Shown here in pieces: positions 14,070-14,639 of a DNA stretch of 64,000 nt. This stretch comes from Eledone cirrhosa (taxonomy: Eukaryota). Positions within the stretch are counted from its first letter, which is position 1, and each line of letters begins with the position of its first letter. The stretch covers positions 29,946,001-30,010,000 of the forward strand of contig OZ024748.1 of the NCBI GenBank assembly GCA_964016885.1. The letters run 5' to 3'. The position numbers were made by a program, and so were the translations under genes. The notes under the pieces are model-generated. The model saw only the letters and a list, made by a program, of their open reading frames with translations. It was not told where the DNA came from and did not search any database.

Positions 14070-14639
14070 ATGTAAGTATGCATGTATACGTACATACATA
14101 TATGTATACAGAAGTACAGTAGCATGCACATATATATATATATATATATATACATATATATATACATATGCATACAGGAACACATACATATATGCACGTA
14201 TCAGTTTAGCGGCGCTTATTATAACGTCGCTTTGTTCGTTTGTAAACAAACTTAACTCACTCAATATGCAAATTAGGCTGCTCAGCCGTTAATTTTCATA
14301 AGGAAAGTATATACTTTCGAACGTTCAACTATCTGGCAGATGGGTAAACGGTGCTGATGATAGCTAACAAGCTTGAAACTAGTACATCGTTCCTGTGTCA
14401 GTGTTGAACAAAAAGGTGACATGGTTGCCTTAACACCGTATGGCATAAATTCAGGCTGTTCAGTTTGTTTACAAACGAACCAAAGCGACGTTATAATAAG
14501 CGCCGCTAAACTGATACGTGCATATATGTATGTGTACCTGTATGCATATGTATATATATAATGTTATATATATATATATGTGCATGCTACTGTACGTCTG
14601 TATACATATATGTATGTACGTATACATGCATACTTACAT
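14070..14639. repeat. Inverted repeat with arms of about 180 bp and a 210-bp spacer
   Basis: 14070-14252 is the reverse complement of 14462-14639 with a few mismatches. Confidence 0.92.
14347..14391 (+). ncRNA. Minimal type I hammerhead ribozyme, intact core
   Basis: AACGGTG CTGATGA T AGCT AACA AGCT T GAAA CTAG TA CATCGTT: 7-bp stem I, CUGAUGA, stem II, GAAA, palindromic stem III (ACTAGT), GUA cleavage triplet. Confidence 0.85.

Follow-up and report, generated by a model that had tools for sequence, protein, structure and literature searches.

How does a hammerhead ribozyme come to lie in the loop of a long inverted repeat, itself embedded in a TA microsatellite, and do the ribozyme and the arms belong to one element designed around that hairpin? 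The question is posed by an insert at 14070-14701 of the window, the whole 64,000-nucleotide stretch of Eledone cirrhosa DNA analysed here. A sequence-only reading of this stretch had described a unit ending at 14639, with inverted arms inside (TA)n, and suggested a non-autonomous fold-back or retrozyme-like element. The inverted repeat is real, with arms at 14063-14256 and 14458-14646 that are 93% identical over 195 columns (the left arm properly spans 14070-14252), and so is the setting, a TA-type array at 7260-19026; the end point has to be moved to about 14701, a 62-nt tail having been overlooked. The parts of the insert and of its surroundings are as follows.

7260-19026, no strand: TA-type microsatellite array, the insertion target, which also hosts other inserts.
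14070-14252, minus strand: inverted partial copy, covering the monomer from about position 254 to 74 and ending outwards at site A, the short 3' end.
14252-14253, no strand: head-to-head (5'-5') junction of the arms, with about 1 base in common judging from the sequence.
14252-14701, plus strand: forward copy, 449 nt of the ~472-nt monomer (340-472, then 1-316) by monomer mapping; outwards it ends at site B, the tailed 3' end.
14333-14401, plus strand: type I hammerhead of the canonical form, its stem I extended, predicted to cut at 14384/14385 after GUA; Rfam HH9, below threshold.
14512-14639, plus strand: part of the monomer made of purine-pyrimidine repeats, containing a TA run whose length varies.
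14640-14701, plus strand: 62-nt tail, bounded by the two preferred 3' ends; the right arm has it and the left arm lacks it.

What had been taken for a spacer makes up, together with the right arm, about one turn of a tandem monomer of ~470 nt, and the only hammerhead of this copy is located in the loop. Within the monomer, the purine-pyrimidine region is predicted to form a long hairpin; the TA run inside it (window ~14549-14580) measures anywhere from ~10 to >100 nt depending on the unit, and it serves in turn as a target of other inserts, for instance at L031.

The ribozyme bears out most of what had been claimed for it: all core positions, the palindromic ACTAGT and the GUA site are in place, and the predicted cut falls where it had been put. 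On the plus strand, stem I pairs 14348-14353 with 14385-14390 (6 bp), the core motifs CTGATGA and GAAA occupy 14354-14360 and 14375-14378, stem II pairs 14362-14365 with 14370-14373 (4 bp) around a 4-nt loop, and GUA ends at 14384; there are, further, a three-base UAH bulge, a GG/CC extension, an unpaired U 3' of stem I and a U-U mismatch at the base of stem II, the last of these absent from the earlier account. The label 'minimal' was a misnomer. According to the portion of PMC4209133 that defines the types, minimal hammerheads have a helix II of 7-8 bp, a helix I of 4-5 bp and a dispensable helix III, and it is the canonical type that matches the helix layout here, with 6 bp in helix I, 4 bp in helix II and a short palindromic helix III. 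Rfam gave no match over the window at the gathering score; its best model for this ribozyme, HH9 (18.5 bits, E 0.071), lies under the gathering threshold. Some microRNA-like Rfam matches were discarded as low-complexity and far under their own thresholds. That the hammerhead is not a chance pattern follows from the 10,651 exact matches of its 32-nt core in the 3.0-Gb genome, against none for the reversed control; a relaxed core pattern yields 24,291 matches, again with none for reversed controls. A hammerhead count for a squid genome, in the figures available from PMC6962438, came to 235 hits.

Among 241 copies of the ribozyme, the common differences concern N7, one base of loop II, one base of the bulge, the distal internal loop and one position of stem I at which pairing is kept (G-U 188, A-U 44, U-G 3), although these copies come from partly overlapping loci and were collected with at most 3 core changes allowed, so that conservation of the core is partly built in. 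The changes that mark the subfamilies sit at tolerant places and preserve the predicted structure. If cleavage took place in dimers, by way of the palindromic stem III, this would be in keeping with what PMC4209133 and PMC7229834 describe in the parts concerned. Against cleavage counts the report, in the cleavage results of 10.64898/2026.07.22.740005, that 8 of 9 predicted frog retrozymes failed to cleave in vitro. The window copy cannot release a monomer, because it has a single ribozyme.

The identity of the mobile unit emerges from the other copies. In the 30 best-matching loci, arm and spacer adjoin within one head-to-tail monomer (an example unit measures 472 nt), which removes the support for a family in which the ribozyme is held between fixed arms; the exact junction of the window copy recurs in none of the 29 other best-matching loci. 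Tandem units of ~430-540 nt, each with one type I hammerhead, are found at many loci, those of subfamily 2 measuring ~430-450 nt (example, 432 nt). The 188-nt spacer has at least 41 near-identical matches from 40 scored candidates of 201, and it occurs at 100% identity in 8 places on 5 contigs, again among the 40 scored of 201 candidates; by these exact copies and by the core counts, the family is dispersed, abundant and recently mobile. No match to a Penelope-type protein was found on the monomer, the ORFs across it are of low complexity, and the monomer appears to be non-coding and devoid of LTR organisation. The other half of the original suggestion, a non-autonomous, retrozyme-like element, is supported.

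Full units differ by a median of 0.6% within arrays (71 pairs) and 3.3% between arrays (2,779 pairs); the differences are private to single units, so that a short arm is not assignable to any particular one. Circular monomers of the two subfamilies fold with z-scores of -8.2 and -5.4 (60 shuffles each), values that are inflated by the self-complementary repeat region. The monomer was also found in 4 contig runs of unclear kind, in which RNA and DNA are indistinguishable; two contig runs with other organism labels have one contig each, of 470 or 486 nt, equally compatible with RNA and DNA. In subfamily 2, loci L095-L097 combine alternating 431- and 440-nt units with a duplicated ~2-kb block, a pattern pointing to local amplification or a dimeric template.

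For the anatomy of the insertions we used a sample that does not depend on likeness to the window copy, namely the first 100 exact core hits on one contig, which fall into 52 stretches with 55 arrays. The arrays carry from 1 to 8 or more hammerheads, at least 2 in 33 of the 55, compared with just one in the window copy. Inversions are present in 31 arrays, all head to head, and absent from 24; the sampled junctions comprise, besides the 31 head-to-head ones, a single tail-to-tail junction joining copies of different age. Classified by eye, 20 of the 31 inverted arrays have a hammerhead in both arms, 4 combine a short, hammerhead-free arm with several ribozymes on the long arm, and 7 resemble the window copy, their one hammerhead being placed in the loop. 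That the ribozyme of the window copy lies there is incidental, a matter of chance, and equally incidental is the contrast that had been drawn with the element at 46582, where the ribozyme is in the arms: the longest match shared by the two is 12 nt.

The 3' ends, on the other hand, are anything but scattered, unlike the 5' ends. Of 83 of them, 70 fall at either of two places in the monomer, site A (positions 247-262, n=30) or site B (300-317, n=40), 62 nt apart, and 6 of the other 13 are at the internal TA run, where arrays have been split by later inserts or by expansion of the run; only 1 of 25 5' ends in the one-contig sample coincides with A or B. A (TA)4+ tract lies within 24 nt of 68 of the 70 ends at A or B, and target-site duplications are unreadable inside such runs. 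Arrays without inversion end at B in 14 cases, at A in 7 and elsewhere in 3. The two 3' ends with their adjoining (TA)n are the 'tail' signature of Penelope elements. Head-to-head junctions are spread across the monomer, with an overlap of at least 2 bases in 15 of 31.

The two ends, moreover, are paired. The one-contig sample includes 28 inverted arrays with both ends in view: 19 have an end at each site, and in the other 9 one end is at neither site. Among the 30 best-matching loci, 17 inverted arrays have both ends visible, 12 of them pairing A with B and 5 pairing B with some other end; in both sets the stray ends are mostly at the internal TA run. Every array with both ends at the preferred sites has one of each (19/19 and 12/12), and AA or BB was never seen in either set. 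With independent ends, 31 out of 31 would arise with a probability of ~3e-10. Subfamily 2 follows the same rule in 6 of 6 readable cases, judged by eye, and in three other hammerhead-bearing families of the fetched DNA, which in some copies lie downstream of Penelope-type coding frames, a short end is paired with a tailed one in 25/25, 8/8 and 3/3 insertions (36/36; 'short' here means that the tail motif is absent, and 4 pairs at locus edges were excluded). A tail on a single end has been noted qualitatively before; what is new is the strict one-to-one count. A literature search that took in few subscription papers found no report of this retrozyme family or of such strict pairing.

The arms also share their variants. 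Those of one insertion differ by 1.8%, compared with 4.4% between insertions, the former value being the lower in 42 of 45 cases; the 3 other arm pairs do no better than the median for separate insertions, and an arm's own partner is strictly its nearest relative in just 7 of 45 cases, owing to numerous ties among young copies. At L082, both arms are multi-unit and nearly identical.

From the strict pairing of a short with a tailed end and the variants common to both arms, we infer two-ended priming on one RNA, probably a circle. Given, in addition, the tandem monomer with its copy number, the two fixed 3' ends, the TA targets and the variable head-to-head junctions, we put at roughly 80% the probability that the window copy represents a non-LTR retrozyme, inserted in short form and with an inversion, and that its RNA was likely the template of a Penelope-like reverse transcriptase/endonuclease. 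In the proposed scheme, multi-unit copies would be transcribed, self-cleave after GUA and be ligated into circles; a Penelope-type protein, probably a dimer, would cut both strands of a TA run; each free end would prime reverse transcription on the same or an identical RNA, one at A and one at B; the length copied by each enzyme would vary and could reach several turns of the circle; and the two cDNAs would then be joined head to head. In the case of the window copy, one enzyme would have gone ~185 nt and the other ~450 nt, by chance leaving a single hammerhead in the loop. The likeness of units within arrays and their divergence between arrays fit repeated copying of one circle, and a cycle with such copying is proposed in the relevant part of PMC7229834; a young homogeneous source array could, instead of a circle, give near-identical units.

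Several of these steps have precedents in the biochemistry reported in PMC11167929, at least in the results that concern us: the Penelope protein cuts and extends both strands, prefers AT-rich DNA, is predicted to be a dimer and begins synthesis at two internal sites of the RNA, between which the tail lies. The same results include no strand preference of the two start sites in vitro, which counts against the scheme. Whether every intact inverted Penelope-type insertion here was made by two enzymes on opposite sides of the cut, each at one of the RNA sites and, for the retrozyme, on the same circle, seems to us an evenly balanced question. If it was, the strict pairing (73/73, in four families) would be a genomic footprint that explains the inverted repeats and tails of Penelope elements, and it would be direct, insertion-level evidence that Penelope proteins move animal retrozymes. 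In LINE-1 twin priming, both ends of the target likewise prime reverse transcription, with a 5' inversion as the outcome. There, different parts of one linear RNA are copied, whereas the arms of the retrozyme copy the same sequence from two fixed sites.

The strongest competitor, which we nevertheless consider unlikely, is a single priming event, after which the new strand or an antisense template folds back and primes itself, with the endonuclease trimming one end and thereby leaving one tail. Self-priming of this kind has been proposed for Penelope elements from junction palindromes (PMC3846280, in its account of junctions), and the tail has been ascribed to endonuclease resolution (PMC8557442, likewise in the part that treats tails); it would explain the variants common to both arms, and it is compatible with the arm lengths of 26 of the 31 insertions that pair A with B, including the window copy. 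The remaining 5, however, are incompatible in either order. Tight palindromic junctions, furthermore, are rare: the inner ends lie within 15 nt of each other in 4 of 32 junctions, and their mean offset of 104 nt is to be compared with 118 nt at random. The longer arm can be either one, ending at A in 14 insertions and at B in 17, and in 9 cases copying of the arm would have had to break off precisely where an inner unit has its site B.

Considerably less probable still is the notion that a rare autonomous Penelope-like element exists, with the repeat as its pseudo-LTR and the arrays as truncated pieces that arise without circular RNA. Its appeal is that the retrozyme repeat shows every insertion signature of Penelope-like elements and that frog retrozymes match pseudo-LTRs, at least in the comparisons given in 10.64898/2026.07.22.740005; also, coding DNA of one or another of the five Penelope-type proteins from our loci abuts arrays directly, at L044 and L047 only. 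These two joins, however, involve different positions of the monomer and are compatible with an insertion at a later time that removed target sequence; the 5' extensions of arrays enter a further monomer, up to 8 or more units; and the units are near-identical within arrays while the arrays differ. The search for a partner, the negative outcome of which weighs against the favoured scheme, covered ~100 of the several thousand arrays. Comparison of the monomer at low stringency with 343 kb of masked flanks, including several Penelope-type repeats, gave 4 short hits at chance level, a pattern meant to pick up diverged sequence beyond site B matched once, and no reverse transcriptase plus GIY-YIG frame between pseudo-LTRs of the retrozyme repeat was found in loci L001-L082. 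Pfam recognised reverse transcriptase plus GIY-YIG in 1 of 3 neighbouring proteins, whose clade names we presume from motifs. Apparent chimeras with other families at L005, L038, L060 and L079 were dropped as evidence of a partner, later insertion with target loss being more likely, because L060 retains part of the other element's own fold-back.

The view that most nearly fits the hairpin itself, a fold-back or MITE-like element with terminal inverted repeats and a ribozyme in its loop, can draw on arms of ~185 bp at 93% identity, a hammerhead that remains folded in the loop of the predicted structure and TA adjoining both outer ends, but it is hardly credible, and as a family trait it is already refuted, given that arm length, junction and ribozyme position differ from copy to copy where fixed ends were expected, that 24 of 55 arrays have no inversion, that the two ends differ in sequence and that the exact 188-nt spacer mostly resides within tandem arrays. 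The long hairpin with the hammerhead in its loop is physically possible, stems I and II being kept in the predicted fold, but it pertains to this copy only.

Set beside known systems, the family shows the testable features of metazoan non-LTR retrozymes and lacks those of fold-back elements or MITEs and of an autonomous element. As described for such retrozymes in the sections at hand of PMC7229834 and 10.64898/2026.07.22.740005 (coral, mussel, axolotl, vertebrates), it consists of non-coding tandems with one type I hammerhead per unit, low GC and thousands of copies ranging from monomers to multimers, and the U-U at the base of helix II is shared with axolotl HHR_Amex2, as depicted in PMC7229834. 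At 430-540 nt, the monomer exceeds the 170-400 nt first reported and is within the 51-972 bp range, as these lengths are quoted in those sections. It differs from the metazoan retrozymes described there in its internal TA run, and neither the head-to-head inversions nor the fixed, paired 3' ends nor the TA targeting enter into the descriptions in those parts of the two papers.

These additional features are the ones familiar from Penelope-like elements, for which PMC8557442, PMC3846280 and PMC11167929, in the portions that deal with insertion structure, describe partial tandems, head-to-head inversion, a one-ended tail, two start sites, AT-rich or (TA)n targets and a hammerhead upstream of the start sites; in the first two, an inverted, 5'-truncated copy is mostly head to head and the tail is often single-ended. 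Unlike the elements in those portions, the retrozyme has no coding frame, its hammerhead is canonical and not minimal, and its tail is 62 nt long, compared with the 30-40 bp given there for Penelope and ~35-90 nt in other families of this genome. Chlamys elements such as MRC1, as presented in the corresponding part of PMC8557442, come close in being non-coding, multicopy and head-to-tail with Penelope-type proteins as movers; by that account they resemble their autonomous partners at the 3' end, a likeness not found for the retrozyme in the DNA compared, and belong to a clade without canonical hammerheads. In the passages concerned, PMC8557442 calls the formation of Penelope inversions and tails undefined, and PMC11167929 leaves the later insertion steps unvalidated. 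The movement of animal retrozymes by Penelope elements has so far been argued, in the parts of this literature that we cite, from common hammerheads, co-occurrence and pseudo-LTR similarity; the present family goes beyond such arguments in displaying the Penelope insertion signatures themselves. The window copy as such is ordinary, one among many thousand of a known kind of element, and its value is that of a test system: the family is young, its insertions number in the thousands, its two start sites are sharp and its ends pair strictly, so that two-ended priming can be counted in the genome and tested in the published in vitro assay.

The window and the loci contain a variety of related elements. 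The same TA array hosts a second small head-to-head insert (17702-17879) with one short and one longer end and a hammerhead at 17757 (-) whose stem II likewise has a U-U at its base; relatives of the insert are at L032, L052, L063 and L072. At 12292-12314, 23 nt are identical to the 3' part of a Penelope-type pseudo-LTR in L037, L065, L078 and L082. A 707-nt insert at 9739-10445 is 90-97% identical to stretches of L048 and L017 that lie beside or inside reverse-transcriptase-like frames, and it is probably a LINE fragment. The element at 46582-48925 is a 5'-truncated one of Penelope type with inverted pseudo-LTRs, unrelated in sequence to the retrozyme family; its coding remains (47178-47964) match the L033 protein, and it has hammerheads with a long stem II at ~48767 (+) and 46745 (-). 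At 54145 (-) and 54229 (+), two hammerhead-like motifs whose stem II is very short are arranged head to head, and at 55734-55904 there is one more brief match to the L033 protein, in its C-terminal part.

Outside the window, L034 (6162-8360) contains a different tandem hammerhead repeat with a period of 310 nt, 7 forward units and an inverted one; with ends 34 nt apart, it is a second retrozyme family of the same design. A further family, at loci L104-L128 and many others, has a 32-nt motif that is present in 21,315 exact copies. Most of its members are very small fold-back inserts within TA runs, one end being short and the other tailed. Followed upstream, the longer members continue into Penelope-type endonuclease DNA, and the family's resemblance to MITEs is such that it could be misfiled among them.
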